A DNA stretch of 64,000 nucleotides, from IMG/VR virus record IMGVR_UViG_3300033149_003588, positions 1-64,000 of that record. One strand, written 5' to 3'. Each line of letters starts with the position of its first letter. Positions within the stretch are counted from its first letter, which is position 1. Made by a program: the position numbers and the translations under genes. Below the pieces are notes generated by a model, which saw only the letters and a list, made by a program, of their open reading frames with translations, was not told where the DNA came from and did not search any database. The DNA is from a virus. This document shows, piece after piece, positions 2,128 to 64,000 of the stretch.

Positions 2128-2139
2128 ATGGCCTCCTTA

Positions 2140-16002: not shown

Positions 16003-16127
16003 TGTTATACCCCATTCACCAGTGTAATTCACTTTAAACATCAAATATCTAGCAATCCTCTCATTTGTATCGGAAAATTTGCGTTTTTTAAATACCATAC
16101 GTTATTCTATTGCATAATAGAATAGCT

Positions 16128-17819: not shown

Positions 17820-17839
17820 AATGTCACCCCATTTATGTC

Positions 17840-18730: not shown

Positions 18731-20081
18731 ATCCTATTAATTCATTTTGTTTTATTTTGTGTACTATAGTCTCGGCTAATTTAATAGGATCACGTACATT
18801 AATTATTGGATTTTTTAACATTATTATAAATTTTTCGACCATTGCCATTGACATTCTGCCCTTCAATAATATATCAATTACTTTTTCCTGTGTACCTCGT
18901 TTCAATGATATATTATGAACATCCATGAATCTACTAATCTGGTCAGCATCTGGATTATCAAAAAAATAAGTTTCATCTATTCTTCCAGATTTCTGGATAA
19001 TAAAATCAGGGATTCGATCTGCATTACTTGTCGTTGCTATAAATAATAAATCATCAATTGTATTAACTCCTTCAAGTGTGTTATTTATTGCACTCTTTGA
19101 TACCGAAGAAAAGCCATAATCATCATCAAGAAGTAAATCTAAGTCTTCAGCATATATTAGAACAGGTTTATTGGAACTATTACCATATATAAAGTCATAT
19201 AAAGAATATATAGAAGTTTTATAACACTTCATTGTTACTGAATCTGCAAATGTCTTGGGCAATAAGATATTACTCCTATTATCAAGCCTATCACACATAT
19301 CATCATATGCCAACCCAAAATACTTAATAATAGTGCGAATTGTCATGGTTTTACCATTCCCTGATGGCCCCTCAAATAATATACCAAGTTTCCATGGTAA
19401 TTTTAATTCTTTTTTGTAAAGATCTTCTGACAATATAAAATTATTAATATAATTAAACAACTTTTCCTTGACACCAGTTCTTAGTATTAATTTATCCAAT
19501 ATGCCTTTAGATAATGTTATTCTTCTTTTCTCAAGCTTACAAACCCTATCATGCCATAACTGGATTATTTTGGTTAAAAAATCTAATATCTGCTTCTTGT
19601 ATTTTTTAACATTTGTGGGAAACACTAACACATCTATAGCACTAACATCACCACCCATAGTAGCTGTGCCACAAAAAACACTAACAAGGGGTATACCCTT
19701 CACCATAAACTTAATTACAGAATTTTGTGTCTTATCAGCATAATATATAAAATCAGGAATATCTTCATCATCTAAATTCAACCATCCATCTATCTTATTA
19801 TATAATCGTAAACTCCCGACAATTGGTTTCATTTGAACAAGGTCGGGATATAGTACATGTAATGTCAACATAAACTTGGCAAGCTGAGATATTACAACAT
19901 AACTCATCTCAACATCTTCAATTTCTTCATATTCTGTATAGAGAGCACCATTAATAAGCCATTGGGGTGATTGATCGCCCTTCATAATATAAGCGCGCTT
20001 ATATTGAATCAATCTATTAATATCTAAAGCAACATCTATAGCCTCTGCCACATCCTTGTTTTTCATTCTAGGTACTATCAA
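18693..20081 (-). CDS. AAA+ ATPase
   Basis: GILFEGPSGNGKT, YAEDLD, ATTS and SGRID motifs. Confidence 0.85.
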   Translation of the reverse strand: MIVPRMKNKDVAEAIDVALDINRLIQYKRAYIMKGDQSPQWLINGALYTEYEEIEDVEMSYVVISQLAKFMLTLHVLYPDLVQMKPIVGSLRLYNKIDGWLNLDDEDIPDFIYYADKTQNSVIKFMVKGIPLVSVFCGTATMGGDVSAIDVLVFPTNVKKYKKQILDFLTKIIQLWHDRVCKLEKRRITLSKGILDKLILRTGVKEKLFNYINNFILSEDLYKKELKLPWKLGILFEGPSGNGKTMTIRTIIKYFGLAYDDMCDRLDNRSNILLPKTFADSVTMKCYKTSIYSLYDFIYGNSSNKPVLIYAEDLDLLLDDDYGFSSVSKSAINNTLEGVNTIDDLLFIATTSNADRIPDFIIQKSGRIDETYFFDNPDADQISRFMDVHNISLKRGTQEKVIDILLKGRMSMAMVEKFIIMLKNPIINVRDPIKLAETIVHKIKQNELIGFDKSEYNTTSSV

Positions 20082-48180: not shown

Positions 48181-48232
48181 ATGGCGCTCATTACAAGCGC
48201 CAATCAGTGTTAGTAAGTACTTTTATAAACTA

Positions 48233-48421
48233 CTATTTGCCCAAGAATTTGGCAGAAATTTGTTTTAATCTTTTTAAATACTTCCTCCATGATTGAGGCA
48301 CGCCACCCATTAATGGATATCTAGAAGGCAACACCTTGGTATTTATACCCACCGAGTGAGGCATTTCAACAGTACTCATTAGCTCTTGAATATGTTCTTT
48401 ATTCACAATAGGTATAATCAT
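48233..48421 (-). CDS. IPI..IQE-leader small basic protein
   Basis: N-terminus MIIPIVNKEHIQE. Confidence 0.75.
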   Translation of the reverse strand: MIIPIVNKEHIQELMSTVEMPHSVGINTKVLPSRYPLMGGVPQSWRKYLKRLKQISAKFLGK

Positions 48422-48747
48422 TTTATATTTCTAATCTGTTTGAGTATATTTTTACCAAGCTTTTTATATGTCTTGCCAAGATTAATACGATGAGCTATCT
48501 TCTGGGTTAATATAGGGATCCTGTTACCCAAATATTTCTGGTGAAACATGGGTTCACTAATACTTTTCCCACTATAAAATCTGCCCAGCATAGTACCTAT
48601 ATATTTCTCTCTATTAGTCCATCTTTTAAGTGGAGATTTTATCACTGCAAGCGCACCAGCCACAGGATCACCACCACCCATATATGTAGCATATCTCCTC
48701 AACGAGCCTGGCAGCCTTTCCTGTATACTCATAATTGGAATAATCAT
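48418..48747 (-). CDS. IPI..IQE-leader small basic protein
   Basis: N-terminus MIIPIMSIQE. Confidence 0.8.
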   Translation of the reverse strand: MIIPIMSIQERLPGSLRRYATYMGGGDPVAGALAVIKSPLKRWTNREKYIGTMLGRFYSGKSISEPMFHQKYLGNRIPILTQKIAHRINLGKTYKKLGKNILKQIRNIK

Positions 48748-48770
48748 AATATTGTTATCATTAGATATAA

Positions 48771-48847
48771 TGGAGGTGTGGGCATCGAAGCCCAGTCCAT
48801 GAATTACCTATATAAGGTCTTAATTCATGTCGAAACCTTTCACCCCC
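48771..48847 (-). ncRNA. Minimal tmRNA-like RNA (tRNA-like domain only)
   Basis: GGGGGTG/CACCTCC-A acceptor stem with G3-U70; stemless D-loop AAAGGTTTCGAC; 8-bp helix ATGAATTA/TAATTCAT; GGAC; T-arm TGGGC-TTCGAT-GCCCA; intergenic. Confidence 0.75.
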
Positions 48848-48858
48848 ATACTTGTATA

Positions 48859-49671
48859 CTATATTGCACTGTACCACCATTTACTATAAGTAGTAACAAG
48901 ATCATCCTCTGTCTCGTGACTACCAATTTTATATTGCGTACTATCTATCCCCGTATCTCTTTCCACATCATATTGTACACTTGTAAAGTCCGCCACCGCT
49001 GATTCTTCTATCTTTCGCCAATATACTACACCATCTATAATCTCACGATACATACGCTGCTGCTCTCTTTCCCAATGAGAATCGAATACCCTTATGGCAT
49101 CCATAATTTTTGTACTTAAATTTCCTGCGCCAATATTTGATCCAGGTTGACTTATACTAGGAATTAATAACCACTGATTTAATATTATCTGATAACAATG
49201 TCTCACGGCTCTATTGGTCAACCAACTTATATCCCACTTATTTAATTCAGATAAATCTGATGGAATTTCTTTAACATCAGCTTCTGAGTGCATAAGGGCA
49301 TCCCCGATTGCAGCACTTGATAATGAATCTGCCAAAGGGCCCAACTGTCTTATAACTCTACCTAATAAACTATTACCCGTGTCCTCTTCTACTATAAATA
49401 TTCTTTCAAATGTGGTATCACCAGCGGTCCATATATCTTTGTATATACCAGCAGTGTTGATTGTTATAGTAATAGTATATTGACCAATTATGACCTCAGT
49501 AATGTCAGAAACATTAAGTGATATATCTGTATATTCTACCCAACCAGTTTCACCATCTAAATGATATATAGCAACATCAGTAAATCCAGGGTTATACAGT
49601 TCACCATCTTGATTATATGTAACCAAAGTTAGAGTTATAGGCTCGTCTATCGTATTATTATAACGACTCAC
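48859..49671 (-). CDS. Putative head-tail adaptor with an N-terminal Ig-like domain
   Basis: GQYT...AGIYKDIW beta domain plus a helical C-terminal domain; position. Confidence 0.55.
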   Translation of the reverse strand: MSRYNNTIDEPITLTLVTYNQDGELYNPGFTDVAIYHLDGETGWVEYTDISLNVSDITEVIIGQYTITITINTAGIYKDIWTAGDTTFERIFIVEEDTGNSLLGRVIRQLGPLADSLSSAAIGDALMHSEADVKEIPSDLSELNKWDISWLTNRAVRHCYQIILNQWLLIPSISQPGSNIGAGNLSTKIMDAIRVFDSHWEREQQRMYREIIDGVVYWRKIEESAVADFTSVQYDVERDTGIDSTQYKIGSHETEDDLVTTYSKWWYSAI

Positions 49672-49704
49672 AGTCCATTCTCCCTAAATCTACATGATAA
49701 CCCA

Positions 49705-49971
49705 TTATAAACGTGGTCTTTTTGCCTTTAAGTATATCTGTCCTATATTTTTATATATTTTCCCAGCATCTGTGCCCACATTTCGAGCTGCCATATAACC
49801 ATAGAATTTCTTCTTCAATAATTTGGCTACATGTGGATTCTTGATATTGCCAAATGACGGAAGTATGAGGGCGTATTTACCACCATACGACGGGCTAGAT
49901 ATTAATTTCCTAAACATACCCATAACAGCAGACGGTGGAGTTTCTTGAATATGTATAATAGGTATCAACAC
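49705..49971 (-). CDS. IPI..IQE-leader small basic protein
   Basis: N-terminus MLIPIIHIQE. Confidence 0.8.
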   Translation of the reverse strand: MLIPIIHIQETPPSAVMGMFRKLISSPSYGGKYALILPSFGNIKNPHVAKLLKKKFYGYMAARNVGTDAGKIYKNIGQIYLKAKRPRL

Positions 49972-50201
49972 TACGACTTCCTCTTCTTACCTAGACCCTT
50001 TCCTTCGCCCTCACCAAAACCGGGACCCTCTTCACACGGCTCAGTGTTCTTATTTCTTCTCAGACCACCAGGCATACCTTTACCCTTGCCTGCTCCGGCC
50101 TTCTGTCCATAAATTACTGATTTTCCTCTACCACGTCTGAATAATCTGGCAAATAGATCACCAATTTTCGTTTCCTGAATTATAATCGGTATTACCATCA
50201 T
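49971..50201 (-). CDS. IPI..IQE-leader small basic Gly-rich protein
   Basis: N-terminus MMVIPIIIQE. Confidence 0.8.
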   Translation of the reverse strand: MMVIPIIIQETKIGDLFARLFRRGRGKSVIYGQKAGAGKGKGMPGGLRRNKNTEPCEEGPGFGEGEGKGLGKKRKS

Positions 50202-50827
50202 TCCTCCATCTTTCTATATGATTTTTTAAACTTGCGTTTTCTTATCCATTTTTTATAGGCTGCTTTAGCTTTATTTATATACCCGTGCGGTACTACATCA
50301 TCCTTATATGTGCCAGAATTATAACCATCAAATATATCATCTATACTTTTAGGATTATACTTAAGCACCCTGTTATTCAAAAACTTAATCACATAAATAA
50401 TGGCAATCTCATCATTATCTAGTTCCTCTGGTGTGCCACGAAATCCTAATTCCCAGGCAACAACAAATAATATTTGCCATGATGAATAGCTTTTTGCAGC
50501 GGCTCTTCCGAACCTCTTCACTAAATCTCGAACTTGTTTAGATTTCTTATAATAATACCCACCTTTATAATATGATTTTTCAAAAAGTGGCTTTGTATTT
50601 TTACCATAATTGCTTTCGACGCATGCTATAGCCTTCAATAATATCTCTGGATCAACATTGATTCTTTTCAAATTTCTTAGATGTGGGGCATATTCCTCAA
50701 TTAGCAACCCCAGTCTATTCTGCCTGGTTGTTGCTGCTACCCACCGTCGCATTTTTATAGTTTCAAGCATTTTATTTAAATTCCAGTGCAATATAATATA
50801 TCTCCATGTTTCGACAATAACATTCAA
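50198..50827 (-). CDS. Lysozyme-like / lytic transglycosylase (probable endolysin); true start probably downstream
   Basis: AIACVES catalytic Glu, SYSSWQI and YNSG motifs. Confidence 0.75.
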   Translation of the reverse strand: MNVIVETWRYIILHWNLNKMLETIKMRRWVAATTRQNRLGLLIEEYAPHLRNLKRINVDPEILLKAIACVESNYGKNTKPLFEKSYYKGGYYYKKSKQVRDLVKRFGRAAAKSYSSWQILFVVAWELGFRGTPEELDNDEIAIIYVIKFLNNRVLKYNPKSIDDIFDGYNSGTYKDDVVPHGYINKAKAAYKKWIRKRKFKKSYRKMEE

Positions 50828-50883
50828 ATTATTTTATATCGTAGAATTCTTAAATATGCCCCACATGTAATCATCTGATTATA

Positions 50884-51318
50884 CTATTTATTTTTCTTCT
50901 TGAATGTTTTAGCGCCCTTCTTTAACGTCCCAAACAAATCACTAACTGAGCCCCATGCCTTTAATACATCTTTAACTGCCTCAACTGCTTCTTGATACTC
51001 TTTAATAATGGCTACCCGTTCTTCTTTGGTTATTTTCTTATCTTCAAGTGCTCCTATGGCTGATACCCCAACCTCTTGAGCTGCAATAATAGCTTCACCA
51101 ACCTCCTTCATCAGTACACAAACACCAAGAATAATAGTTTTAACCTTGACAAATATTACTGCAACAGCGCTAATACCTAGAACAATGGCAATAATCCAAT
51201 TTATCAGTGACCATTGATCTATTCCTGGTATTAGATCTTCTATACCATCGGCCATGATGGTAGTCGTCGATACTGTCAATAATAACAATATCATATAAAT
51301 TAGTGTACTCCATTTCAT
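50884..51318 (-). CDS. Membrane protein, holin/spanin candidate
   Basis: Signal/TM segment plus a second TM and a basic tail; adjacent to the lysin. Confidence 0.55.
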   Translation of the reverse strand: MKWSTLIYMILLLLTVSTTTIMADGIEDLIPGIDQWSLINWIIAIVLGISAVAVIFVKVKTIILGVCVLMKEVGEAIIAAQEVGVSAIGALEDKKITKEERVAIIKEYQEAVEAVKDVLKAWGSVSDLFGTLKKGAKTFKKKNK

Positions 51319-51332
51319 ATTATCCTTCCTTT

Positions 51333-51962
51333 CTATGGTGTCGATCTCAACATCTCATCAGAATACGACACATTAAATATTGGCACACCATTTTGGATAG
51401 AATTATAAGAAATATCCTTTATTCCAGTAATCCCGCCCAATGCTGTCAAAATAGTAGGTAATTTAGTTATCAATATAAGATCATTTTTATAGTCAATAGT
51501 CTCCGAAATTAATATCTTGGGTACTTCCATTTCAACAATGCCGCCTACATCTACAAATGATAATACGCCAATATTCTTGTCAAATCTAGACAATGGCATG
51601 GGATCATGAACATTATCTAAAAATGTAGCATCACTACCAATCTCATTTAATGTAAAACTCCTTATATAACTAATATCAATACTATCATTGCTCTCAACAA
51701 CCAGACTATAATCATATGTCAAATCCTGTATAAGGGTAGTCGCGCTATCTTCTACTATATTAATGGCTTTATCAACAGATAATGCAACCAATTCATCTCT
51801 AATTGATTCAATATCAAATATTGTCAGATATCGCATATACCACACAGTTACAACTATATTACACGCAACTTGTCTTACAATATTGCCATCTATCGTATGT
51901 GTCTCGCTATAGTGGGGCTTTATATACTCAAATTTGTAATATGTTTTACAAGGATTGGCCAT
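51333..51962 (-). CDS. Hypothetical protein
   Basis: 209-aa ORF in the operon. Confidence 0.65.
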   Translation of the reverse strand: MANPCKTYYKFEYIKPHYSETHTIDGNIVRQVACNIVVTVWYMRYLTIFDIESIRDELVALSVDKAINIVEDSATTLIQDLTYDYSLVVESNDSIDISYIRSFTLNEIGSDATFLDNVHDPMPLSRFDKNIGVLSFVDVGGIVEMEVPKILISETIDYKNDLILITKLPTILTALGGITGIKDISYNSIQNGVPIFNVSYSDEMLRSTP

Positions 51963-51985
51963 TATAATTATGACAACAAAATAAT

Positions 51986-53176
51986 TTACATACTCACCCT
52001 ATAATCACCATCAGGATATATCCAGCATGCTATTAACCCCTTTGCAGGTGGCGCATAACCAAGTTCGCTACCATAACTGTCGAAATAATTTAAAAAAGAA
52101 CTACAAATGACAATGTATTGTTTTTTAATATCCAACGTAAAATCTATGGGATTTCTCACTATTCTATTCTTCTTTTTGTCTGTCGCATCATGCACATGAC
52201 CACTTAAAAAGAAACAACAATGCTCTGTAAACATTAACGGAGATAATGCCGCATTAAGTTTGCCCCCTTCAGATCTAGCACTAGAACGACCATGCCAAGC
52301 ATAAAATGTAAATGTGTGCTCCCCATATATTACATCTATAAATGCTGGTTCTCTGTAATAAGGAATTTCTAGTTTGCTAGCTATTACCTCACCCATATCT
52401 ATGCCAACACTATTTGCCGAACGTCTTTCGTGATTGCCTCTTACATATGCCAATATTTTATGTTGTATTGGTGCTAATTTAGATATCATCTGGGCAGCTT
52501 GCGCCTGTGGTGACATGGATTGTCTATATACTGAATCTGCAACACTATACTTAGAACTGTTTTCTATCATGTCCCCCAACAATATTACATACACACCATC
52601 CGTATCGGCAATCCATTTTATACTCGTATCAAATAGCTCTTCATCAAAACTCGGTTCAGCATAGTGGACATCACCAAGTGGTATGATTTTTACTTTATCA
52701 AGTTCAAGATCTGAAGATGGTAATTGTACTCTTAAGTATGGGCAATTATCATTTTCATTAATAAATAATTTAAACTTCCTTGGTATAAAATCTAAATGCT
52801 TATTAAATTCCTTGAGTAGTGCAACTACTTTCCCGGTTGATCTAGTATTAAATTTAAATACTTCATATCCAAGTACACTCCCCAATATCTTATCTACTTC
52901 TTCTTCATTAATCCCATATTTATTATATAGCGCACGATATGATAATGCCCTTAATTTTGCCCAGCCAATAAGCGTAGCATGATCTAATTCCTTGACACTT
53001 TTTCTGCTAGCTAGCATGCCTCTTATTGGAGTAAGCCCCATCGCCATAGCCTTATTATATACAGCGCTAGCTGTTCTTAGGGGTAACATATCTGCAATAT
53101 TATTCAAAGACAAAATACCCCAATTATCTCTTATTACATTTTCTTCATCTACTGTCCAACGTATATTACCAGCCAT
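51986..53176 (-). CDS. Calcineurin-like metallophosphoesterase with an N-terminal Myb/HTH-like domain
   Basis: GDVH, GDMIE, GNHE, WHG and GHVH motifs; N-terminal WTVDEE...LRTASAV. Confidence 0.88.
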   Translation of the reverse strand: MAGNIRWTVDEENVIRDNWGILSLNNIADMLPLRTASAVYNKAMAMGLTPIRGMLASRKSVKELDHATLIGWAKLRALSYRALYNKYGINEEEVDKILGSVLGYEVFKFNTRSTGKVVALLKEFNKHLDFIPRKFKLFINENDNCPYLRVQLPSSDLELDKVKIIPLGDVHYAEPSFDEELFDTSIKWIADTDGVYVILLGDMIENSSKYSVADSVYRQSMSPQAQAAQMISKLAPIQHKILAYVRGNHERRSANSVGIDMGEVIASKLEIPYYREPAFIDVIYGEHTFTFYAWHGRSSARSEGGKLNAALSPLMFTEHCCFFLSGHVHDATDKKKNRIVRNPIDFTLDIKKQYIVICSSFLNYFDSYGSELGYAPPAKGLIACWIYPDGDYRVSM

Positions 53177-53487
53177 TATCCACCTCTTTTAAAAAAATTG
53201 AGCAAATTGGCCAATCTACTTTTACCAATTTTGGTAAAATTAGCAGAATGTTTACCACGCGCGGACTTGACAATAGATTTAAGTCTTTTCCTCATGAATT
53301 CCCTAGAATCGAAGATAGTAACATTAGGATGCCTGTACTCATTTTTTAGAAAGCGACCTTGTTGTAGTAAACCGCCCATCCTGCCCGCGATATTTGACCG
53401 CTTTAAAAAATCAAGCCCACTGTCTCTTTCCTGCGTTATCGGAACAGCACAATGGGCACCAGAAATATTTACAATGGGCACTAACAT
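53176..53487 (-). CDS. IPI..IQE-leader small basic protein (extended leader)
   Basis: N-terminus MLVPIVNISGAHCAVPITQE. Confidence 0.75.
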   Translation of the reverse strand: MLVPIVNISGAHCAVPITQERDSGLDFLKRSNIAGRMGGLLQQGRFLKNEYRHPNVTIFDSREFMRKRLKSIVKSARGKHSANFTKIGKSRLANLLNFFKRGG

Positions 53488-53504
53488 ATATTATTTACCC
53501 ACCA

Positions 53505-53843
53505 TTACCCAGACAATATGCCAATCATACTAACTACAATACTTATAGAAATATATAAAACCCCAAGCACTATATGAGTTCTCTTTAATACAAATCCTGT
53601 TTGCTCTCTCATGGCTTTCATAATATTGAGTTCTAATTTGTTGTTTTCTATTTGATCTCTTATTATTCTAAACTCGTCATCAATATTCTTCTGTTGACTA
53701 TTCATAAATTCTTTAACTTCATCAATACTCTTTACCACTGCTCCTATTTCTTTCCACATCTTGGTAATAATAATAGCAAGACGGCCCTCAATAAGCTTGC
53801 CATCATCATCATAGAGATTACTAAGATTATTATTATCTGCCAT
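53505..53843 (-). CDS. Coiled-coil protein with a C-terminal TM helix (holin-like)
   Basis: Heptad region followed by a hydrophobic C-terminus. Confidence 0.55.
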   Translation of the reverse strand: MADNNNLSNLYDDDGKLIEGRLAIIITKMWKEIGAVVKSIDEVKEFMNSQQKNIDDEFRIIRDQIENNKLELNIMKAMREQTGFVLKRTHIVLGVLYISISIVVSMIGILSG

Positions 53844-53852
53844 TATCGCTCA

Positions 53853-54140
53853 CTAATATTTAAATTTTTTATATGTGTCACTCGATTCCATAATCATCAT
53901 TGAAATAGAATGTTTTAGTTGTCTTATCGCATCAAGAAAAGCTTGCGGTTCAACCATGGCTTCAAGATTATAAAATCTTACAATATCTTCACGATTAACA
54001 TTTTCAAAAATAAATTCTGCCTTATTATTATTTAAAAGAGCCTTCTTAACACCTACATATTTGGCCCCGTTCAATAAATATAAATAGGCCGCCAAACAAA
54101 TATCGCTAGTCGTACCACTATGCTTATCATAATGAGGCAT
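53853..54140 (-). CDS. DUF5659-like phage protein
   Basis: TSDICLAAYL...KAEFIFE...FLDAIRQLK; the ATG at 54140 avoids overlap with the upstream gene. Confidence 0.65.
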   Translation of the reverse strand: MPHYDKHSGTTSDICLAAYLYLLNGAKYVGVKKALLNNNKAEFIFENVNREDIVRFYNLEAMVEPQAFLDAIRQLKHSISMMIMESSDTYKKFKY

Positions 54141-54150
54141 TATTGTGCCC

Positions 54151-54435
54151 CTATTCTTTCTTGAATGGCCCCAATCCCAGTCTCTTCTGAATGGCTTCTG
54201 CCTTTTTATATACATCAGGACGATTATGTTGACGAGCTCTCGTTTTAGCAGCGCTCAACATTCTACTAGATATATTCCCAGCCTTATCACGATAAGGATA
54301 TTTTCTATCAGATGGTGATAAAAACGAACTAGCAGGCATTTCTCGTCTCACAGCTGGACGATGAAGCCATTTCTTCCCTGATAACCTGGCTCTCGTAATT
54401 TTTTGCTCTTGTATATTCACAATAGGTATTAACAT
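54151..54435 (-). CDS. IPI..IQE-leader small basic protein
   Basis: N-terminus MLIPIVNIQE; core RxxMPxSxFLxPxxRKYP. Confidence 0.8.
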   Translation of the reverse strand: MLIPIVNIQEQKITRARLSGKKWLHRPAVRREMPASSFLSPSDRKYPYRDKAGNISSRMLSAAKTRARQHNRPDVYKKAEAIQKRLGLGPFKKE

Positions 54436-54488
54436 TAGAAAATCACCTCACTTATACAACCATAAAATTAATTTACTTTTCTTTTTCG

Positions 54489-54803
54489 TTATCTATATGG
54501 ATACACATATGGATATGGACGCATTTGTCTAGACAATTGAGGCTGACTACTCTGTTTCTTTATAGATCTTTTAGTAGCAATCTTCCCTCCTATCTTATAA
54601 CCAGTATACCCAGCCAGCGGCACAGTACTAACAGCAGCACCACCCATGACTTTCGCTAAAACAGGATGTTTTCTCACAAATGTGGTAATCTTAGGCCCTC
54701 CCATACGTGCAATAAGCTCACCCATGCCACGCATAGCATGTAATGCTCTACTCCTAAAAGAACCTATAGGAACTTCTTGAATATGTACAATGGGTATAAT
54801 CAC
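54489..54803 (-). CDS. IPI..IQE-leader small basic protein
   Basis: N-terminus MIIPIVHIQE. Confidence 0.8.
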   Translation of the reverse strand: MIIPIVHIQEVPIGSFRSRALHAMRGMGELIARMGGPKITTFVRKHPVLAKVMGGAAVSTVPLAGYTGYKIGGKIATKRSIKKQSSQPQLSRQMRPYPYVYPYR

Positions 54804-54812
54804 TATATAATT

Positions 54813-55163
54813 TTATATTATTTTAAATACTTTATTTTTTCTTTGTTTTTTTCTTAATTTTTCTATATTTTTTATAGCTCCCACACTGTTTGTGGGAATA
54901 GCAGCAATATCATGTGTGTCCACTCCCCTAATCTTTACATCTATAATATGTCTCTTGGGAATGCGACCCAATAAATAACCTGCCGGACCAGCCCCAAGAA
55001 CACCAAGTCCTAATACCTTTTTATATTTACGAGTAGTTTTCCCAGAAGCACCCAATGATTTTAATATAGCATGCCCCATTTTGCCAGGAATACTGCCAAT
55101 CCTATTCATAGCTTTTATCTTATTAAATATACTTTCTCTTATGTTGATAACCGGTATAAACAT
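54813..55163 (-). CDS. IPI..IQE-leader small basic protein
   Basis: N-terminus MFIPVINIRE. Confidence 0.8.
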   Translation of the reverse strand: MFIPVINIRESIFNKIKAMNRIGSIPGKMGHAILKSLGASGKTTRKYKKVLGLGVLGAGPAGYLLGRIPKRHIIDVKIRGVDTHDIAAIPTNSVGAIKNIEKLRKKQRKNKVFKII

Positions 55164-55196
55164 ATTAATATAGTTTTCTGTATTTACTACATAAAT

Positions 55197-55424
55197 TTAT
55201 ATTATCTTAAATACTTTCCGTAGTAAATTAAGTTTAGTAGCATTAACACCAAATGGTTTGGTACTTCCCATTATAGCTCGTGATAATCTTTTACGTATAT
55301 TTAATCTCTTTGCTGCCTGAGCTAACTGCGCCATTACAAGCGGATCATGAACCCTCGGGATAGATTTAGCATAGGTGCCCCCAACCTCTTGTATAATCTT
55401 CGCATTTGCTATAGGTATCAACAC
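55197..55424 (-). CDS. IPI..IQE-leader small basic protein
   Basis: N-terminus MLIPIANAKIIQE. Confidence 0.8.
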   Translation of the reverse strand: MLIPIANAKIIQEVGGTYAKSIPRVHDPLVMAQLAQAAKRLNIRKRLSRAIMGSTKPFGVNATKLNLLRKVFKII

Positions 55425-55768
55425 TATTTCTTTTTCTTTCCTAATTTTTCTCTTATCTTGGATTCAATTTTATATTTCTCAAGCCCACGCGCGTATTTTG
55501 TTTTAAGGTATGGCTGCAAAAGAGCAGAAAGCCCACCCAACGCGCCAGCACCAAAAGTAGCACCCATAAGACCCCTGGTAATTGCCTTGCTACCTTTGGG
55601 ACCGAAAAAACCCATTAGACCTCCCACACCACCCAATACGGCACCCCTCTTAAGCCCCGTATATGCTGCAGTAGGTCTTGTACGTATATATGCTAAACGA
55701 CGTTTATATTTTTGAATTTGTTTATCAGGATCATCCGCTTCCTGTATATTTACAATTGGTATAATCAT
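55424..55768 (-). CDS. IPI..IQE-leader protein with glycine-zipper helices
   Basis: N-terminus MIIPIVNIQE; GAVLGGVGGLMG and GATFGAGALGG segments. Confidence 0.8.
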   Translation of the reverse strand: MIIPIVNIQEADDPDKQIQKYKRRLAYIRTRPTAAYTGLKRGAVLGGVGGLMGFFGPKGSKAITRGLMGATFGAGALGGLSALLQPYLKTKYARGLEKYKIESKIREKLGKKKK

Positions 55769-56295
55769 TATACGCTCTTCTTTTTCTTTTTATTTTTTCT
55801 AGACAACGCACCTAAACCATAACCAACACCATAACCACTGGCCGCATACCCCGCATAAGGTATAATAAAACCTAGCATATCATGGGGGTGTTTAGATCGC
55901 CACATCCAATTTTTAATTATTCGGGTACCCCTGCCACCATGAACCCTCGTTACATATTTTTTAATAGCGCTAGCACCACTCTCTTGTACTTTGCCCACCT
56001 TCATCGGTATTTTATGCTTACGACGTGTAGGAGACACCTTACGACGAGTCTTACGCGCTTTACCACCATGATACAAACCACTGAGACCCGCCATAGCAGC
56101 AGTATAATGCATTAGCGAACGTGAAAATCGGTCTTGATATGGATAACCCAATATCCACAAACTACGACGTGGATTAATAGATTTTGTATGTCCTATACTA
56201 AAATGCCCAAATAGATCAGGTTTCATAGCAATAGCACGTTTCCCAAATTTATAAAATCTACCAGCCTCGCTTATATGCAGAATAGGTATAACCAT
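55768..56295 (-). CDS. IPI..IQE-leader basic protein, possible two-unit polyprotein
   Basis: N-terminus MVIPILHISE; internal VQE-S. Confidence 0.8.
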   Translation of the reverse strand: MVIPILHISEAGRFYKFGKRAIAMKPDLFGHFSIGHTKSINPRRSLWILGYPYQDRFSRSLMHYTAAMAGLSGLYHGGKARKTRRKVSPTRRKHKIPMKVGKVQESGASAIKKYVTRVHGGRGTRIIKNWMWRSKHPHDMLGFIIPYAGYAASGYGVGYGLGALSRKNKKKKKSV

Positions 56296-56312: not shown

Positions 56313-56348
56313 TTTAAAAGGGGTGCCAGATCTTACGCCTGGCACCCC
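56313..56348 (-). terminator. Rho-independent terminator after the capsid genes
   Basis: GGGGTGCCAG-loop-CTGGCACCCC followed by TTTTAAAT. Confidence 0.85.
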
Positions 56349-56418: not shown

Positions 56419-56985
56419 CTACTTCTCGCCCTTCTTCTTCCTAATCTTCTTAAGTAGTGCAGCAGTACCAGCACCAGCACCAGCAAGACCAGTGCCCATA
56501 ATACCATAACCTACTTTTCTAGGATTCCTAAGCATAGCGTATAGGGGCTTTCTGGTTAAATTACCAACACTAAGTCCCGCCCTCTGAACACCACCATAGG
56601 CACCACGAGCACCGGCAGTAGCACCTTTGGCTATGCCCGCACCGGCTTTCTTTAGACCACCGTAAACACCAGTAGCACCTTTAGCTACACCACGAGCACC
56701 GGCGGCAACACCTTTAGCTACACCACGAGCACCAACGGTAGCACCTTTAGCTACACCACGAGCACCAACGGTAGCACCTTTAGCTACACCACGAGCACCA
56801 GCGGTAGCACCTTTAGCTATAGTTGCGCCGATTTTTCTTAAAAACGTAAGTATATTGGCACCGGCAGCTTCTTGAAGTGCTTCAACATCCAATTGACAGC
56901 CTGATAGTGATCCCTCCTGGATAACACCATCTTCATCAGCAGTGAACCACGATTCACCTATCCTAATAAGATAAACTCTAGACAT
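56419..56985 (-). CDS. Basic Gly/Ala-rich 11-aa repeat protein (putative internal head protein)
   Basis: GVAKGATVGAR repeats (33 nt); acidic N-terminus with IQE-G and LQE-A; directly after the major capsid gene. Confidence 0.75.
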   Translation of the reverse strand: MSRVYLIRIGESWFTADEDGVIQEGSLSGCQLDVEALQEAAGANILTFLRKIGATIAKGATAGARGVAKGATVGARGVAKGATVGARGVAKGVAAGARGVAKGATGVYGGLKKAGAGIAKGATAGARGAYGGVQRAGLSVGNLTRKPLYAMLRNPRKVGYGIMGTGLAGAGAGTAALLKKIRKKKGEK

Positions 56986-56994
56986 AATCTCTCC

Positions 56995-58089
56995 TTAAGA
57001 ATTATTAGATCCCTTATACCAGGGGCGATAATCAAGAATTATCTTACCCCAGATGTGACGAATTTTATAACGAATTTCATCGCGATTAAAAGCATTACCA
57101 CTAGTGCTATTCTCAACGTACATCTCCGGTTCCCTATGTCCTCTCAAGAAACCAACTTCGAGAGTATCATATTGTTTGGGATCTGCTATAAGATACCACT
57201 CATCAGAACCCAACCAATTGGAAATTCTAATTTCCAATTTACCACCGATTTGGAAAAAGTTTGGCTCGTTCGGAGTATGAGTTCTAGCAACACCATCGGT
57301 ATGATACATGTGCGTGCCAGGATCAATACCAGCAGCTGTAATGGTACCATCGGTAATCGGAACAGTTCTTGCATTGAGAACTTTTAGGACCCTAACTTCC
57401 TGTTCAGGACCAATAAGTAGATACCTCGGTGTCATACCAATAACATTCTCATTACGCAGGTCTTTCTGTGTTCTTATGGCTTTATAACCATCAGCTAGCT
57501 TAGCCTCAGTAATAACATTAACACCAGTATCTACATTACCATGATCTGACGCAAAAAGTGTCGCACCATCATAAATAGTGGGATTGCCAGTAATATAGGT
57601 TATGATGTCTTTATCAAGACTACGCTTGGCGGCCCTGCCCATCTTGATAGGTTGCTGCCTCAAAACATGTAGGTCGTCATTTATGATACATTCCCATGAG
57701 ATACCAAAAATGCGCCCGTACTTCTGAACATTATACTTAATCTCTTCTTCGGCGAGTGCACTATCTCTATATTCACCGTGCTCAATAACTGCCTCTAGAA
57801 GATCAGCTTCACTTACACGTTCCCTGTATTGATCTTTGAAATCATTAACATCATTAATTGCCGAAGCAAGATCCTGCCATGTGCTAGGGAGTTCCTTGTA
57901 TTCTTTGAGTAGTTGTTTAAACATCGTATTCCTAAGAATATAAGGAAAATCAGCAGAACTTGCAGCTTCTTGCAATAACAGATTGTAATGACCGCGTTCG
58001 ATCTCATCAAGAGCTATCTCTTGAATAGGAGTCAAATGGCCTTCATTTTCAGCCCTGAATTGCGTCGCCCATGTTTTAGGATCGTACAT
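56995..58089 (-). CDS. Major capsid protein (HK97 fold, Mu gpT-like)
   Basis: SSADFPYIL, VNDFK, KYGRIFGISWECIINDD, PRYLLIGP, WYLIAD and LEVGFL motifs. Confidence 0.92.
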   Translation of the reverse strand: MYDPKTWATQFRAENEGHLTPIQEIALDEIERGHYNLLLQEAASSADFPYILRNTMFKQLLKEYKELPSTWQDLASAINDVNDFKDQYRERVSEADLLEAVIEHGEYRDSALAEEEIKYNVQKYGRIFGISWECIINDDLHVLRQQPIKMGRAAKRSLDKDIITYITGNPTIYDGATLFASDHGNVDTGVNVITEAKLADGYKAIRTQKDLRNENVIGMTPRYLLIGPEQEVRVLKVLNARTVPITDGTITAAGIDPGTHMYHTDGVARTHTPNEPNFFQIGGKLEIRISNWLGSDEWYLIADPKQYDTLEVGFLRGHREPEMYVENSTSGNAFNRDEIRYKIRHIWGKIILDYRPWYKGSNNS

Positions 58090-58233: not shown

Positions 58234-58611
58234 TTAAACCGCCCACTCCCTCAAGAGTATGATAGCTTCAGTATCAGCAGTAGTATAAGCAGCCGTAAAG
58301 CAACCTATTTCTACACCCGTAGTATTAACAACCTTGCTCTCGCCACTATCCCAATACGCAGTGCTCCAGGCTGCTACGGTACCAGTATCACTAGTAATAG
58401 AACAAGGAAGCGTCCAGCTACCACCACGGTATACTGCGCCAGTATCAGTAATATTGTATTCCTGCGAATCCGAACCCTTGGGCAGGATCTTACTCAAAGC
58501 AATACCGATTAATTCACCATCTAGCACAAGATCGCCACTATTAATAGTGTCGGTATCGCTCGGATTAGTATAATCTACAACCCTTCCATCCTTTACTTTA
58601 ATTTTGGCCAC
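58234..58611 (-). CDS. Capsid cement / decoration protein (DUF2190-like)
   Basis: INSGDLV...LIGIAL...G...LP...AYWD pattern; lies between the protease and major capsid genes. Confidence 0.75.
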   Translation of the reverse strand: MAKIKVKDGRVVDYTNPSDTDTINSGDLVLDGELIGIALSKILPKGSDSQEYNITDTGAVYRGGSWTLPCSITSDTGTVAAWSTAYWDSGESKVVNTTGVEIGCFTAAYTTADTEAIILLREWAV

Positions 58612-58655: not shown

Positions 58656-60092
58656 CTAGGCTGTAGCCGTATCAGTTTCAAAACCAATATAAGCGGCAAG
58701 CCTTTTTTCGGGCGTGACTTCTTCATCATCACCAACTGTCACACCAACAGGCGGAGTCGCGAGCCCCTCGGTAATGTGCTGAATATAAGTAGCCTCGTCA
58801 TTAATTATGTCCACCATATCATCAACGGATTCACAAGCTAGCATAGCCGGGAAAATCCGTTCTTTAGATTCATCAGAAAGGTTACTCTCCTGAAGCAGCT
58901 GCTCAGCTAATCTAGTGGTCTCGTTCTTAACCACGCCATTGGTTAATTCCTCAATCTTGGCCCGAGTAGCAGCAATATCTTCATTCTGAGCGATTATAGT
59001 ATTAGTAAGCTGTTCAATAGTCTGCTGCTGCTCTAAGAATGCAGGATGCTGAGTAATGTCAATGAGCTGATCGCCTTCCTGAACTGGCTCAACACCAACC
59101 TGTTCAGTGTCTCCATACTCACCCTCATCATACTCATCCCCGTACTCATCTTCAACTATATAAACTTCATCAATATCAAGCCCCAAACTACCATCAGAAC
59201 TTTCCTGAATATAGTTTAAAATGGGGTCAAGCTGCATAATCTCGCCAGTCTCTTCATCCATAACATAACCATCGCTTTCCATAATGCTAACAAGATTAGT
59301 TATAAGCTCATCCCTTTCAGCAAGCTCAGCGTCATAATCAACCTTAGCATTAGTAATGATGGCTTCCACCAAATCGGGGCGCGATTCAGTAAGTTGTTCA
59401 ATGGTAACTTTATCTAGGCCTTCCATTGTAACCTCCTCAATGTTATTATCAATTATCTTCTTGTTGTCTATTCCACCATCAACATTGGTATTAATCATAC
59501 CTAATTCAGCCTCGGTCAAGCGCCTTATTTTACCGCCAGCAGAGGCCTCACTAACAAAATCAGCACACCTTACTGTATGTACATGCTGTACTACCTTTGT
59601 GGGTACACCATTAATATCTTTATCTTCTGTCTGGGCAATAATATCAATACTGATACCCAAGTCATCAAGAGCAGAATTGGCATGTAAATCTTTAATAAAA
59701 TTCTTAAAATCATCACGCACAAATTTAGCATCGGCCTCAATTACTTGTTTAGGACGTCCCATTATATCAACCCCGCCATCTGGATGATCTATAACCCTGG
59801 GATTCCTAATTAAAGCCACCCAATTATCAATGGGATGAGCAAGTCTACCTACATCATTGGGATCTTGATGATCTCTATACATCTTCTTACCGTCAAACAT
59901 CGGGGCCAATTGAGCAAGTATTTCAGGAGAATAATATATCCCTTGTTTGGATCTGCCCGATTCCATAAGAATAACAGTGGCGTCACTATCTTTATTAGAA
60001 CTAGCCTTTACTCGGCGGCCTAATCCGGCTTCTCTTATAAGATTTATATCATCGTTATTCATAAATCTGCTCATTAAATAGTGTTTAATCAA
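58656..60092 (-). CDS. Prohead protease fused to an acidic scaffold domain
   Basis: GRSKQGIYYSPE, MYRDH, GISI and ADFVSEASAGG protease motifs, then an acidic coiled coil. Confidence 0.85.
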   Translation of the reverse strand: MIKHYLMSRFMNNDDINLIREAGLGRRVKASSNKDSDATVILMESGRSKQGIYYSPEILAQLAPMFDGKKMYRDHQDPNDVGRLAHPIDNWVALIRNPRVIDHPDGGVDIMGRPKQVIEADAKFVRDDFKNFIKDLHANSALDDLGISIDIIAQTEDKDINGVPTKVVQHVHTVRCADFVSEASAGGKIRRLTEAELGMINTNVDGGIDNKKIIDNNIEEVTMEGLDKVTIEQLTESRPDLVEAIITNAKVDYDAELAERDELITNLVSIMESDGYVMDEETGEIMQLDPILNYIQESSDGSLGLDIDEVYIVEDEYGDEYDEGEYGDTEQVGVEPVQEGDQLIDITQHPAFLEQQQTIEQLTNTIIAQNEDIAATRAKIEELTNGVVKNETTRLAEQLLQESNLSDESKERIFPAMLACESVDDMVDIINDEATYIQHITEGLATPPVGVTVGDDEEVTPEKRLAAYIGFETDTATA

Positions 60093-60745
60093 CTAGATTC
60101 GTTCACATCTTCTTCTGTATTACCTATATCAGTAATCTGTTTGCGCAATAGCTCTATAAACTTGGTCACATCATCCTTATGCTTCAAAATAATAACTCTA
60201 TTAGGTGTAACCCACATACCATCTATCAATATTTTTTCATGAGGACCAGGATTTAATAAATGCTCAGATACGCTAAATACCGGATAATGTGCGGGACTAA
60301 GTATATGTTCTATAACATCATCTAACACGACATCACGAAGATTACCATTGTTATCACTAGTTTTAACCCCCATTATGCCAGACATATAAACATGAGCCAA
60401 CACTAATGGCCACAAATAAATTGGTATTTTATTAAGATCCACATCTAATAATGGTTTATCTAGCCTTTCATCAAGGTACTGACCCTTTATACCCTCTTGC
60501 GGTAAATCTGCTGCATTAGTCATAGATGTCTTCGATATCTCCCCAAGAGTCTTATCATCGCTAACCGCAGCTTCACATAGTGGATGTAAATCAACTGCCG
60601 ATATCAAAGAGCGAGCAAATAATATAGATTCTGTTACACGTTTTTTCTTATTCATATTATGCTTACTGTGTTTAACAAATTTGCGTGCAATATCGGGCTT
60701 TTGCGCCCACAAAAATCTACGTTGCTTCTCACTAACAAAAGGCAT
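60089..60745 (-). CDS. Hypothetical head-associated protein
   Basis: N-terminal MPFVSEKQRRFLWA motif; stop overlaps the protease start. Confidence 0.65.
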   Translation of the reverse strand: MPFVSEKQRRFLWAQKPDIARKFVKHSKHNMNKKKRVTESILFARSLISAVDLHPLCEAAVSDDKTLGEISKTSMTNAADLPQEGIKGQYLDERLDKPLLDVDLNKIPIYLWPLVLAHVYMSGIMGVKTSDNNGNLRDVVLDDVIEHILSPAHYPVFSVSEHLLNPGPHEKILIDGMWVTPNRVIILKHKDDVTKFIELLRKQITDIGNTEEDVNESS

Positions 60746-60826: not shown

Positions 60827-63800
60827 TTACATCTTTGTTATTATGTGTTTAATCATCTCTAACTCCTCTTTTAATGCATTTAATACATCTTTGCTAAGAG
60901 GATATTCAGGATTTTGTAGAGTGTCGATTATTCTATTACCCCTATTGATAAGTAGTGCTTTTTTCAACTCCTCCTTACTAATCTTTCTTTTCCACCCACC
61001 GACACGCTTATACATAATACCATATCCCTTTCCAGCATCATCCAGCCATGCCCTAGATATCTGTTCGCTAGATAATTTCTTGGGTTTACCACGATATACC
61101 CTATCATGTGCATCAACATTAATATTCAATTTATCAATTAATTCTGGGTTATCACGAACCATGTCTATCAATGTATTAGTGGTGGCCCTATCATTTAATG
61201 TAATATCCACTATATCATGAGCTGCAGTATGTATATCATTAGCATGAGGCATCCTACGTAATGCACCAAAATCGTATCCGCTCATAAATATAGTATCTAA
61301 TGGATCCCATGGATTATAATAAAATAACTGCCATATAGTAAATTTTTCACCAGATTCAGTAGCTATGGGGGTAAGACCAATACGCCTAGCGTCAACAAAC
61401 GCATCACTCTGAAATACATAAGAACCAATTCTATATGTATTTTCAGTATTTGGGCGTCCTATGGGAATAGCTAATCGCATTATAGATTTAAATTGGGATA
61501 TATCAATGGGCATACCAAGCTGTGTTTCTATATCATGTCTAGCTTGTAAAACACTTTTCAAAAATTCTTGTGCTACTATAGAATATTCACTACTAGCTTC
61601 CATAGAATTAAATGAAAACGAGTTAATAACACCACCCAGAAAATCAGCACGATCACCAACATTTTTAACAGTGCCAATCCAGGGCTGTGCACCATGTATT
61701 CTTAGTGATGCATCAAGTAACAATCTACTGGGCATGTCAAGATCTGGATCTACATCAATACGAGTAAAGGCATTATTAACATTGGTTTCTACCCTAAATT
61801 TTATCGGAGCGGTACCCATATTTATATCTGCAAGTGCCGTGGCATCATCTATCCCTGCTTCTGCTGGCATATAAAATATCCTGCCATTCTGATAACAATA
61901 TCCAATCCATTTATGCTCGGTTATACCAGGCTGAGCGCCAGGGGCCCATGCGGTACCCAATATTAACTCACGTAATACGGTTTTCTTGCCAGTTACTGGA
62001 CTAATCACACTAGTATATGGACCACGCCACGCAGTCATAGTGAGACGTCCAATAACCTCGCGCGCCCTAGGAGTCAGTTTGCTCTTTATAAAATCTTGCC
62101 TAACAGTATCAAGTTTTCTCCATTGCCTAAGAAATTCTAATACACCAGGAGAACCAGTATTTTTCAATATGTCAACTAGTGACATATTCCAAAACTCAAG
62201 ATTGTGATCACTAACAGATATGTGACCAATCTTTTCTATTAATTTAGCTATTGCGGCACTTATCTTTTCTATATTGTTAGATACCCTGTCAGCAATATGG
62301 GCCGACATAGTACTCGTAATTTTCCATCTTAAATAAGATAATTCCTTTCCACCCAATTCACTAAATGATGGCCATTTATCAACAGCCCCCTTTAGTGGCA
62401 CACCACTAGGGTTAAACCCACCATATATCATATCATATATTTCCTTATTAGTATATAAACCTGTATCTTTCAACTCTTGTACAACTTTACCTACGGCCTC
62501 GACACCATAAAATTCCACACCACTAGGATCAGTATATAAATACTTGTCAAACAAAGCGATATTAAACGCTTCACATATCTTATCTTGCTCGGCATTCAGA
62601 ACAGACTTAATATCAAGTCCCAAAGAATCAACGAGTTCGGTTATAACCGAGTCAGCTGCTATTATACGTCCATTCACTATGTTCCTCGCCATAAGATCTA
62701 TGGCCATACTAATATCGCCAGACTCATAAAACATTTTTAGCGCGTCTTCAATTTCCCGAAGAGTTAATTCCTTGTGCCTTTCCGCAAGCTCTTCGGCACT
62801 AAGCCCTTCGTCACGATGTTCCTTAAATAAAGTAAACAATCTATCATATATATGATCGTGTGAAATACTACCCAATAAAACACGTATATCAGATGTCACA
62901 CCCCCATCTACCAATGAAACAGTATTATCTACTGCAATCTTTTGAATAGTCCGGACAATATCTGTGTTACCCTTGCTAAAATTTATCGCTGCATCAATAG
63001 AATCTGGTCCATACACAATTCTAGATATAAGACTTCTATTATATTTATCTTTAAACTCAGACCATAATTCGTCCCCACGTTTAACCGGCATAGCCTCCTT
63101 CCACTCATATATCTTATCATGGACAACCCGTGGAGATAACCCATTAGTAAATACCCCTTCCATATATAGTACACCATAATTAGAATTAACATTAAATCTG
63201 CCCCCCAAATCATCAGGCGAGGTTACAGCTAATTCAAACAAAGACTGCTGATATTCCACCTCACCAGCACTTCCAATCTTATCCCGTATTCTTGATAACC
63301 TTTTTCTATCTATCTCGACAGTAGAACGATTAGCCATTACAGCAGTGGGGAGGAATATTGGTGTATAAGTACACCTACATCTTCTATGACGTGGTAGAAC
63401 TGGCATTATGTGCCACTTTTCTTGTGGATAAATCTTGCCAGCATCAGCCAGGCAAACCGGACAAGTCATATTATCCATTACAACAGTAATCATAATGCCT
63501 TGCAATAAATCAGCATTGTCATTCATAAGCTGCTTTACAGCCGTGTTCACATATACACGCGCAAAATCCTGATATACAGCATATCTCCCAACCATCTTAT
63601 CTTTGCCACTATATTGCCCCCTCAATATACCATATATATTATCTTCTAATCTATTAAAATTAGTACCAAGATAGGCCTCTGGATTATTCTTAACCCTCAT
63701 TTCTAAATCATCAAGATCTTTATACATATCTAATAATAAACGCCTATCATAGTGTGACAATGTTAATTTATTATCTTTAAACCCAATCTTACTATATATC

Positions 63801-64000
63801 CTCCTCATCGTGGCCATAGTCTTACGATTATCAACAGTTACACCGATATCAGAATACATGGTATTAACAAGAGCCGAATTAGAAACTATAGTATCATGTA
63901 TACTCTTATCAATCTCACTAGACAATATACTGTTCCCAACTATCGAATCTATAACTTCCAAACCCCAATCATGCCCAATCCTCCCAAGTAATTTTTTAAT
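60827..64000 (-). CDS. MuF / SPP1 gp7-like head morphogenesis protein with a long C-terminal extension (5' end outside the window)
   Basis: DNMTCPVC...G...PRHRRCRCT motif; the frame is open to base 64000. Confidence 0.8.
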   Translation of the reverse strand: MKKLLGRIGHDWGLEVIDSIVGNSILSSEIDKSIHDTIVSNSALVNTMYSDIGVTVDNRKTMATMRRIYSKIGFKDNKLTLSHYDRRLLLDMYKDLDDLEMRVKNNPEAYLGTNFNRLEDNIYGILRGQYSGKDKMVGRYAVYQDFARVYVNTAVKQLMNDNADLLQGIMITVVMDNMTCPVCLADAGKIYPQEKWHIMPVLPRHRRCRCTYTPIFLPTAVMANRSTVEIDRKRLSRIRDKIGSAGEVEYQQSLFELAVTSPDDLGGRFNVNSNYGVLYMEGVFTNGLSPRVVHDKIYEWKEAMPVKRGDELWSEFKDKYNRSLISRIVYGPDSIDAAINFSKGNTDIVRTIQKIAVDNTVSLVDGGVTSDIRVLLGSISHDHIYDRLFTLFKEHRDEGLSAEELAERHKELTLREIEDALKMFYESGDISMAIDLMARNIVNGRIIAADSVITELVDSLGLDIKSVLNAEQDKICEAFNIALFDKYLYTDPSGVEFYGVEAVGKVVQELKDTGLYTNKEIYDMIYGGFNPSGVPLKGAVDKWPSFSELGGKELSYLRWKITSTMSAHIADRVSNNIEKISAAIAKLIEKIGHISVSDHNLEFWNMSLVDILKNTGSPGVLEFLRQWRKLDTVRQDFIKSKLTPRAREVIGRLTMTAWRGPYTSVISPVTGKKTVLRELILGTAWAPGAQPGITEHKWIGYCYQNGRIFYMPAEAGIDDATALADINMGTAPIKFRVETNVNNAFTRIDVDPDLDMPSRLLLDASLRIHGAQPWIGTVKNVGDRADFLGGVINSFSFNSMEASSEYSIVAQEFLKSVLQARHDIETQLGMPIDISQFKSIMRLAIPIGRPNTENTYRIGSYVFQSDAFVDARRIGLTPIATESGEKFTIWQLFYYNPWDPLDTIFMSGYDFGALRRMPHANDIHTAAHDIVDITLNDRATTNTLIDMVRDNPELIDKLNINVDAHDRVYRGKPKKLSSEQISRAWLDDAGKGYGIMYKRVGGWKRKISKEELKKALLINRGNRIIDTLQNPEYPLSKDVLNALKEELEMIKHIITKM

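Follow-up and report, generated by a model that had tools for sequence, protein, structure and literature searches.

We analyzed the first 64 kb (64,000 nucleotides, here called the window) of IMG/VR record IMGVR_UViG_3300033149_003588, a 144,798-base record of an uncultured phage, in which a block of genes between positions 48,233 and 56,295 includes 11 that code for small basic proteins with a common N-terminal leader ending in Glu. The best explanation of the whole, and on balance a probable one, is that these proteins are internal head proteins, targeted and cleaved in a T4-like manner, although their leader is not that of T4 and the phage has a capsid of the Mu gpT type. The relevant genes all lie on the minus strand, where the head module reads terminase, portal, a 5,279-amino acid (aa) protein, the 60089-60745 gene, protease-scaffold, cement, capsid, the 56419-56985 gene and then the block, from 56295 to 48233.

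All 11 open reading frames (ORFs) of the original prediction, each with a leader ending in Glu, were confirmed at their coordinates (given below for each protein). We found that the leader motif, M-(I/L/V/F)-(I/V)-P-(I/V)...x-x-E, occurred in 11 of 177 called genes (those on the minus strand that tile the first 142,624 bases), compared with approximately 0.1 expected from N-terminal residue frequencies; as the motif was defined from the finding, this comparison is post hoc. It was confined to these 11 genes, which all fall within 8 kb after the capsid gene. Also, when every start codon of every ORF of at least 35 aa in the whole genome was scanned with the pattern M{1,2}[ILVF][ILV]P[ILV], 14 rows were obtained: 12 from the 11 ORFs (one of which has two Met), an internal TTG of an AAA ATPase gene, and a 39-aa ORF on the opposite strand. 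The leader had been described as 10 aa long, which is true of 8 of the 11; two are 13 aa and one is 20 aa in length, the latter with Thr two residues before Glu, where the other 10 have Ile.

The Ile-Pro-Ile core lies 5–8 residues before Glu, and its distance from the start is fixed even when Glu is at position 13 or 20. Because the core stays by the start while Glu moves, the leader appears to have two parts, the core for recognition and a site for the cut. This is what would be expected of a separate recognition element, and in T4 the N-terminal part of the tag has been mapped as responsible for targeting, with residues 8 and 10 serving in processing (PMC9026906). Both points speak against the view that the leader is a cleavable mask or assembly handle without an address function, with the chains entering the head via DNA or scaffold, or acting outside the head after activation, or until destruction, by the protease. 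Such a mask would agree with the facts that the partner of the leader in the prohead is only putative, that the leader is wholly different in a relative (record G004) although capsid and protease are homologous, and that the 56419-56985 gene and several basic genes of G004 have no leader; we consider it quite unlikely. Within the T4-like explanation, it is somewhat favored that the first half of the leader, which is hydrophobic and contains the Pro, does the targeting.

It had been proposed that the constraint acts on the peptide rather than on the DNA. All four Pro codons (CCT 5, CCA 2, CCG 2 and CCC 2) and both Glu codons are used, substitutions in the leader are conservative, and insertions keep the frame. 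However, the flanking Ile codons are biased, with ATA in 9 of 10 cases before Pro (p 0.012) and ATT in 9 of 10 after it (p 0.003; both tested against the context-specific usage of this genome), and same-codon pairs make up 77 of 144 versus 63.5 expected (one row is offset by a codon). The claim therefore holds for the Pro position and needs qualification on both sides of it. Codon bias would also favor a shared start that is a DNA or RNA element (a translation-start cassette, or a recombination or regulatory site), the peptide being a by-product. No common RNA fold was found in the 8 start regions examined (z −1.3 to +1.1), the DNA upstream of the leader genes showed no conservation, and all carriers are basic; together with the codon variety and the in-frame insertions, these results make such an element highly improbable. 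Because of the biased Ile codons, the leaders can instead be read as copies of one ancestral cassette, which suggests that the leaders descend from a single copied unit.

The leader Glu fits the site grammar of the phage's own head proteins, because the same type of site precedes the capsid domain and runs through the scaffold. The major capsid protein (56995-58089) is Mu gpT-like (families PF25209/PF10124); its nearest solved chains are Mu gpT-domain capsids, and its closest homologues are 41–49% identical. Its Pfam domain begins within Leu-Gln-Glu-Ala, at Glu41, where the maturation cut is predicted, and both Leu39 and Glu41 were invariant in 22 homologues. The 196 distinct capsid homologues examined comprised 72 that could be assigned to this protease type, 15 that went with S78 and 109 with neither assignment; before the capsid domain, hydrophobic-x-Glu-[ASG] was present in 65, 1 and 82 of these, respectively, whereas 12 of the 15 in the S78-fused group had Arg-[AS] at this site. 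In all 70 capsid sites scored by the [ASG] pattern, the residue after Glu was Ala (50), Ser (19) or Gly (1). Compared with shuffled sequences, [ILV]xE[ASG] was enriched in the protease/scaffold (12 vs. 2.1), the 56419 protein (3 vs. 0.5), the 60089 protein (3 vs. 0.6) and the capsid (4 vs. 1.1), and no enrichment was seen in four neck/tail proteins tested (for example, 0 vs. 1.0 in the putative tail tube and 7 vs. 6.9 in the tape measure). The 60089-60745 gene codes for a 218-aa protein with a short basic N-terminal peptide followed by Glu sites and an acidic domain. A twelfth basic protein, encoded by 56419-56985, has a 39-aa acidic propeptide ending in Leu-Gln-Glu and then an Ala/Gly/Lys/Arg chain with an isoelectric point (pI) of 12. 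Its gene lies directly after the capsid gene, has a strong ribosome site and precedes a terminator, and it is therefore likely to specify an abundant internal protein. At 56601-56840 (minus strand), 33-nucleotide tandem repeats encode the 11-residue Ala/Gly/Lys/Arg unit of this protein.

The gene at 58656-60092 encodes a prohead protease (about 59511-60029) fused to an acidic scaffold, the whole containing the 12 sites mentioned above. The protease domain contains conserved His and Ser (the latter at about 59650), and its AlphaFold model, built on a 56-row alignment, had a predicted local distance difference test score (pLDDT) of 91. In a Foldseek search with this model, T4 gp21 (5jbl) had the top probability, 0.97 (template modelling scores 0.52/0.54, root-mean-square deviation 3.9 over 150 columns); herpesvirus proteases were also among the matches, and no E-value was significant. 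PF03420 Peptidase_S77 was the Atlas feature in 21 of 30 matches (score 0.95), and a PHROG head maturation protease matched with an E-value of 1e-4. As the Pfam S77/S80 hidden Markov model matched none of the 56 aligned members, the gp21 assignment is one of fold rather than family membership, and we predict from the model that the maturation protease has the T4 gp21/herpes fold. HK97-type S78 maturation was considered and rejected, since there was no PF04586 match and a profile comparison with S78-fused proteins gave a probability of 1.8%. When the protease domain was modelled together with residues 1–36 of the 55424-55768 protein, the complex scored 0.57, the best of 3 controls scoring 0.02, with contact agreement among runs of at least 80% and a partner pLDDT of at least 53. 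Of 157 solved complexes, 116 attained this mark, as did 2 of 215 mismatches, but only 18 of the 157, and both of the mismatches, did so with a score of 0.60 or below; the prediction thus lends weak support to the pairing. The predicted cleavage after the leader Glu is quite probable, and the predicted location of the leader proteins inside the head nearly as much so. Two further observations concern the scaffold. At position 59426 (minus strand), an in-frame ATG behind GAGGAGG within the protease gene probably allows the scaffold to be made as a separate protein from an internal start. Also, a 115-aa gene far from the head module (G000:C1:116178-116525, minus strand) begins with 18 residues that match those at the beginning of the scaffold domain with 72% identity (E 2e-5), possibly a second kind of tag that mimics scaffold.

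The mature part of one leader protein (54151-54435) recurs in five records of Thermus phages (phiMa, Cumys and Lalka), where it forms the C-terminal end of a longer chain as one of its domains. It is 52% identical over 64 aa to the C-terminus of phiMa_19, and Lalka8_4 matches too. In phiMa its gene follows a MuF-motif head gene, and in Lalka8 it is two genes away from a DarB-like gene. In both phages the module is preceded by hydrophobic-x-Lys-Ala instead of a Glu site, and, counted from the joint, a conserved Trp stands at residue 13 in the Lys and the Glu settings alike (three sequences). Lys-type sites were also abundant in Lalka8 head proteins when compared with shuffles: 4 vs. 0.6 in scaffold-like gp57, 7 vs. 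0.8 in gp58, described as the prohead protease by position (bioRxiv 10.64898/2026.04.20.719267), and 4 vs. 0.8 in the portal; none of these three had Glu-type sites. Lalka8 genes for head proteins rich in hydrophobic-x-Lys-Ala are at L145:12363-13944, L144:912-2675 and L143:7933-9216. The recurrence of the module is thin evidence, but nothing else points so directly to the joint as a processing site that matches whichever protease is present.

Cargo turnover was observed in a relative, as had been anticipated. In G004, a 178-kb record whose capsid is 46% identical, 14 of 21 genes in a cluster at 31.8–42.4 kb encode basic proteins. Eight of the 21 start with a helix-like leader ending in Leu-[LIV]-Glu, compared with 4 of 257 genes elsewhere, a post hoc count. 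No G004 gene carries the leader described here, and none is homologous to the 11 cargo proteins, so that both leader and cargo differ. One gene in the basic cluster has the same short basic N-terminal peptide as the 60089-60745 protein. Another (L018:12890-14503), with a Leu-Leu-Glu leader, encodes a basic protein that combines a LigD-type phosphoesterase with an ATP-dependent DNA ligase and is a candidate for a virion-borne end-repair enzyme. A Gly-rich basic polyprotein with Glu joints is encoded a few kb after the capsid gene in G001, G004 and G005. The capsid site is kept in distant smaller relatives and in the cultured phage Satis, with no such basic cluster in the regions examined.

Several observations weigh against T4-like loading and cleavage in this phage, which is known here from sequence alone. 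All site patterns were chosen after viewing the sequences and are post hoc. Ala or Ser follows the leader Glu in only 3 of 11 cases, and the complex with the protease was modelled with one of these three best-case leaders. Among the 5 closest proteases the catalytic His does not vary, but across the 56 it does. The 15 S78 sequences form a single clade, and the contrast between capsid site and protease type therefore amounts to one independent change. Glu-type sites are enriched in Lalka8 too (DarB-like protein 24 vs. 11.1, helicase 17 vs. 10.8, MuF 5 vs. 2.0), a cultured phage for which we infer a Lys-specific maturation protease; as it seemingly cuts at Lys, enrichment of Glu sites can by itself stem from helical composition. 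In G004, 13 of the 21 cluster genes have no tight leader, and with a looser, less tuned pattern 17 of 45 basic genes matched versus 50 of 233 other genes (p 0.02). About 80% of SPN3US head proteins are described as uncleaved (PMC10052503), so cleavage and head location are separable. Finally, a Shine-Dalgarno match is missing from four leader genes, and a strong terminator precedes all 11, so some of the proteins may be scarce or not made; as products of genes behind a terminator they are likely minor in amount.

Basicity is the common property of the cargo. In net positive charge, all 11 proteins are within the top 17 of the 177 genes, and their post-Glu parts, 990 residues in total, contain 220 Lys+Arg vs. 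38 Asp+Glu, with pI values of 10.5–12.0. The original prediction called these parts mutually unrelated and rich in Lys and Arg. The second half stands, and no pair in an all-against-all BLASTP comparison was better than E 0.12, but 4 of the 11, as well as the 56419-56985 protein, share an architecture in which a moderately hydrophobic stretch, rich in Gly and Ala, leads into a Lys-rich tail. In the order of the block, leader protein 1 (55768-56295, 175 aa) has a 10-aa leader to Glu10 and a second site, Val-Gln-Glu, at residue 105, giving two modules in one chain; among 1.84 billion representatives it matched only itself. Leader protein 2 (55424-55768, 114 aa) has a Gly-zipper-like stretch and a Lys tail, and every Atlas match to it scored under 0.9. 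It is followed by leader proteins 3 (55197-55424, 75 aa, 13-aa leader), 4 (54813-55163, 116 aa), 5 (54489-54803, 104 aa) and 6 (54151-54435, 94 aa), the last with the mobile module as its mature part (phrog_16160, E 4e-5). Leader protein 7 (53176-53487, 103 aa) has the 20-aa leader, with two Pro-Ile motifs, and leader protein 8 (49971-50201, 76 aa) is a Gly/Lys-rich low-complexity chain without a match in a tblastn search against cultured phages. Leader proteins 9 (49705-49971, 88 aa), 10 (48418-48747, 109 aa) and 11 (48233-48421, 62 aa, 13-aa leader) complete the set.

None of the 11 matched Pfam, NCBIfam or PADLOC and one matched PHROGs, in a phrog with no assigned function; these libraries are not an anti-defence catalogue. 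An arsenal of injected effectors, as originally proposed, is thus unsupported for the 11, while the other part of that proposal, DNA-condensing peptides, fits better in that the sequences suit DNA binding or charge neutralization. Because the charge is uniform and family matches are missing, we favor DNA binding over specific effectors, and whether mainly non-specific DNA binding is the job of most cargo is about evenly poised. The same loading and cutting might nevertheless deliver specific counter-defence or take-over effectors like T4 IPI*, the charge being only an adaptation to DNA. Consistent with this are the complete cargo turnover between this phage and G004, the leader on the G004 DNA ligase, the description of T-even internal proteins as diverse defence proteins in which the tag alone is conserved (PMC3012670), and the place of the 54151 module two genes from a DarB-like gene in Lalka8, a DarB homologue having been found in virions of Lalka27a (bioRxiv 10.64898/2026.04.20.719267). 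Yet several cargo proteins are low-complexity Gly/Lys chains, their extreme basicity is uniform, the family searches found no effector among them, and the module in phiMa adjoins a MuF head gene, not an anti-restriction gene; effectors are therefore unlikely.

The Gly/Ala stretch before the Lys tail (in the proteins encoded at 55424, 54813, 54489, 55768 and 56419) raises a further possibility, that Gly-zipper members act on membranes as ejection (pilot) proteins and, after their release, help to open the host membrane for the genome. Many such modules are present in G004 and G001, and one Atlas cluster has the PF13441 Gly-zipper on 53% of its members, a lead only, as its score was 0.76 and Atlas scores under 0.9 often arise by chance. 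GxxxG runs do occur in the cargo, but no Gly-zipper Pfam match was obtained, the best 19-residue hydropathy is only 1.0–1.4, 7 of the 11 have no such stretch, and sequence is not conserved between relatives, unlike in an essential channel. We regard a pilot function as quite improbable.

With T4-like loading preferred, the following mechanism can be proposed. The leader core would bind a prohead component and dock each protein in the assembling prohead; during maturation the phage's own gp21-fold protease would cut after the leader Glu, as in the scaffold and capsid propeptides; and the freed short, very basic chains would stay on the packaged DNA as counter-ions. They may leave the head together with the DNA, although ejection of cargo into the host could equally well be absent. 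New cargo genes would likely form when a further basic module is fused to a copied leader cassette. Lysines of T4 internal proteins are described as contacting DNA phosphates (PMC3012670).

The placement of all 11 genes between the capsid and neck genes was correct as to the capsid side. However, seven non-leader genes are interspersed among them, and two leader genes are downstream of the putative head-tail adaptor gene (48859-49671, homologous to a G004 gene at E 5e-12), which has no family match and is assigned, as is the neck in general, by position only. The other non-leader genes of the block include 50198-50827, whose homologue (38% identity) is inside the G004 basic cluster and which, without a family match, is a lysozyme-like candidate from a motif reading by eye, and 51986-53176, a metallophosphoesterase. 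Several leader genes have overlapping stops and starts. Two terminator-like hairpins flank the leader block on either side: a strong one at 56320-56348, at the boundary of the capsid operon and the first leader gene (z −5.1; 0 of 200 shuffles equally good), and one at 48182-48202, directly 3′ of the last leader gene (z −3.0; 4 of 200). In the capsid operon, 58234-58611 encodes a head cement/decoration protein (PF09956, phrog_122). As to the siphovirus-like form assumed in the original prediction, the tape measure was matched in a profile scan of this genome, and the G004 gene in the tube position matches phrog_807; no sheath family was matched among the genes scanned, which covered part of the tail genes.

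Outside the block, the ORF of 5,279 aa that separates the portal and protease genes (minus strand; 60827-64000, continuing to G000:C1:76666) has a MuF-type Cys/His motif near residue 4400. Residues 9–12 are Ile-Pro-Ile-Ile, a loose resemblance to the leader core that may be due to chance, and genes of 4,600–5,800 aa occupy the same slot in relatives. Twelve paralogues at both record ends (window 477-3219 and G000:C1:136436-142962, minus strand) share an N-terminus of ~28 aa with an Ile-Asp-His-Lys-Leu-Gln-Thr-Gly core; one scanned member is a DUF4116 repeat protein (E 6e-62). Also on the minus strand, the gene cluster at 13495-20081 has N-termini that resemble nucleotide-sugar/glycosyltransferase enzymes, by eye only, and at 3825-6580 an AAA_5 ATPase gene adjoins a DUF2201 VWA/metallopeptidase gene.

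A conserved tag on highly diverse cargo has already been described for T-even phages (PMC3012670, PMC9026906), and the principle is therefore known; also, both this phage and its host are uncultured. What the present system offers is compactness, with 11 leader variants, a second leader family and a three-gene head module (protease-scaffold, cement and capsid) in which targeting and cutting may be separated by mutation; in T4, how proteins become localized to the scaffolding core is still described as mysterious (PMC9958956). If our explanation is true, capsid cargo would be predictable from sequence in uncultured phages, the protease site could be read from the capsid gene, and tags orthogonal to those of T4 may become available for protein delivery. 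A broader idea, rather doubtful at present, is that large tailed phages far beyond T4 generally use a short, protease-cut tag as their plug-in standard for head loading. Leaders would then be lineage-specific, and cargo modules, among them membrane-active peptides and a virion-borne ligase that mends or circularizes the genome on entry, would move between unrelated phages and be re-tagged for the local protease (Glu here, Lys in Lalka and phiMa); leader and protease/scaffold together would form an orthogonal loading kit.

A literature search found no description of such a system in this lineage, and several known systems can be compared with it. In adenovirus, the core proteins pVII and pX are basic, bind DNA and lose propeptides to the virion protease; virus, protease and sequence are unrelated, and the likeness is one of analogy only. 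P1 Dar and the DarB-like virion protein of Lalka are described as head-packaged accessory proteins (PMC11437467, bioRxiv 10.64898/2026.04.20.719267), and the 54151 module is near the DarB-like gene in Lalka8. However, there is no Dar homologue among the 11, and Lalka head proteins have Lys-type rather than Glu-type sites. Closer are phiKZ and SPN3US, in which many head and ejection proteins lose N-terminal propeptides after Glu through phiKZ gp175 and SPN3US gp245 (PMC10052503, PMC9026906), as predicted here for head proteins. In contrast to our phage, these are giant myoviruses with (S/A)-x-E or A-x-E motifs and, in SPN3US, propeptides of 20–254 residues, and the text on their head maturation describes no shared short leader. 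The closest parallel is T4, whose internal proteins are reported to be targeted to the core by propeptides of 10–19 residues (PMC9026906, PMC3012670, PMC9958956) that gp21 removes by cutting after L/I-X-E (PMC9026906), and whose tag also packages foreign proteins (PMC9026906, PMC3012670, PMC9958956). As with the capsid-targeting sequence of IPI/IPII/IPIII, an N-terminal propeptide of ~10 residues ending in (I/L)-x-E is found here on divergent small proteins, the protease has the same predicted fold as gp21, and cargo varies among relatives. Unlike in T4, the capsid is PF25209/Mu gpT-like and not gp23, the protease is fused to the scaffold instead of there being separate gp21 and gp22, 11 genes take the place of three, and no cargo is homologous to IPI-III by family match. 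The T4 tag has a Lys/aromatic pattern, whereas the leader here is hydrophobic with a fixed Pro and carries no such pattern. Thus, the likeness to T4 claimed at the outset is upheld for the Glu leader, which fits the phage's own head-protein sites, and for the predicted protease fold, and not for head type and cargo homology: as read from these genes, the system works like that of T4 but is not a member of it.

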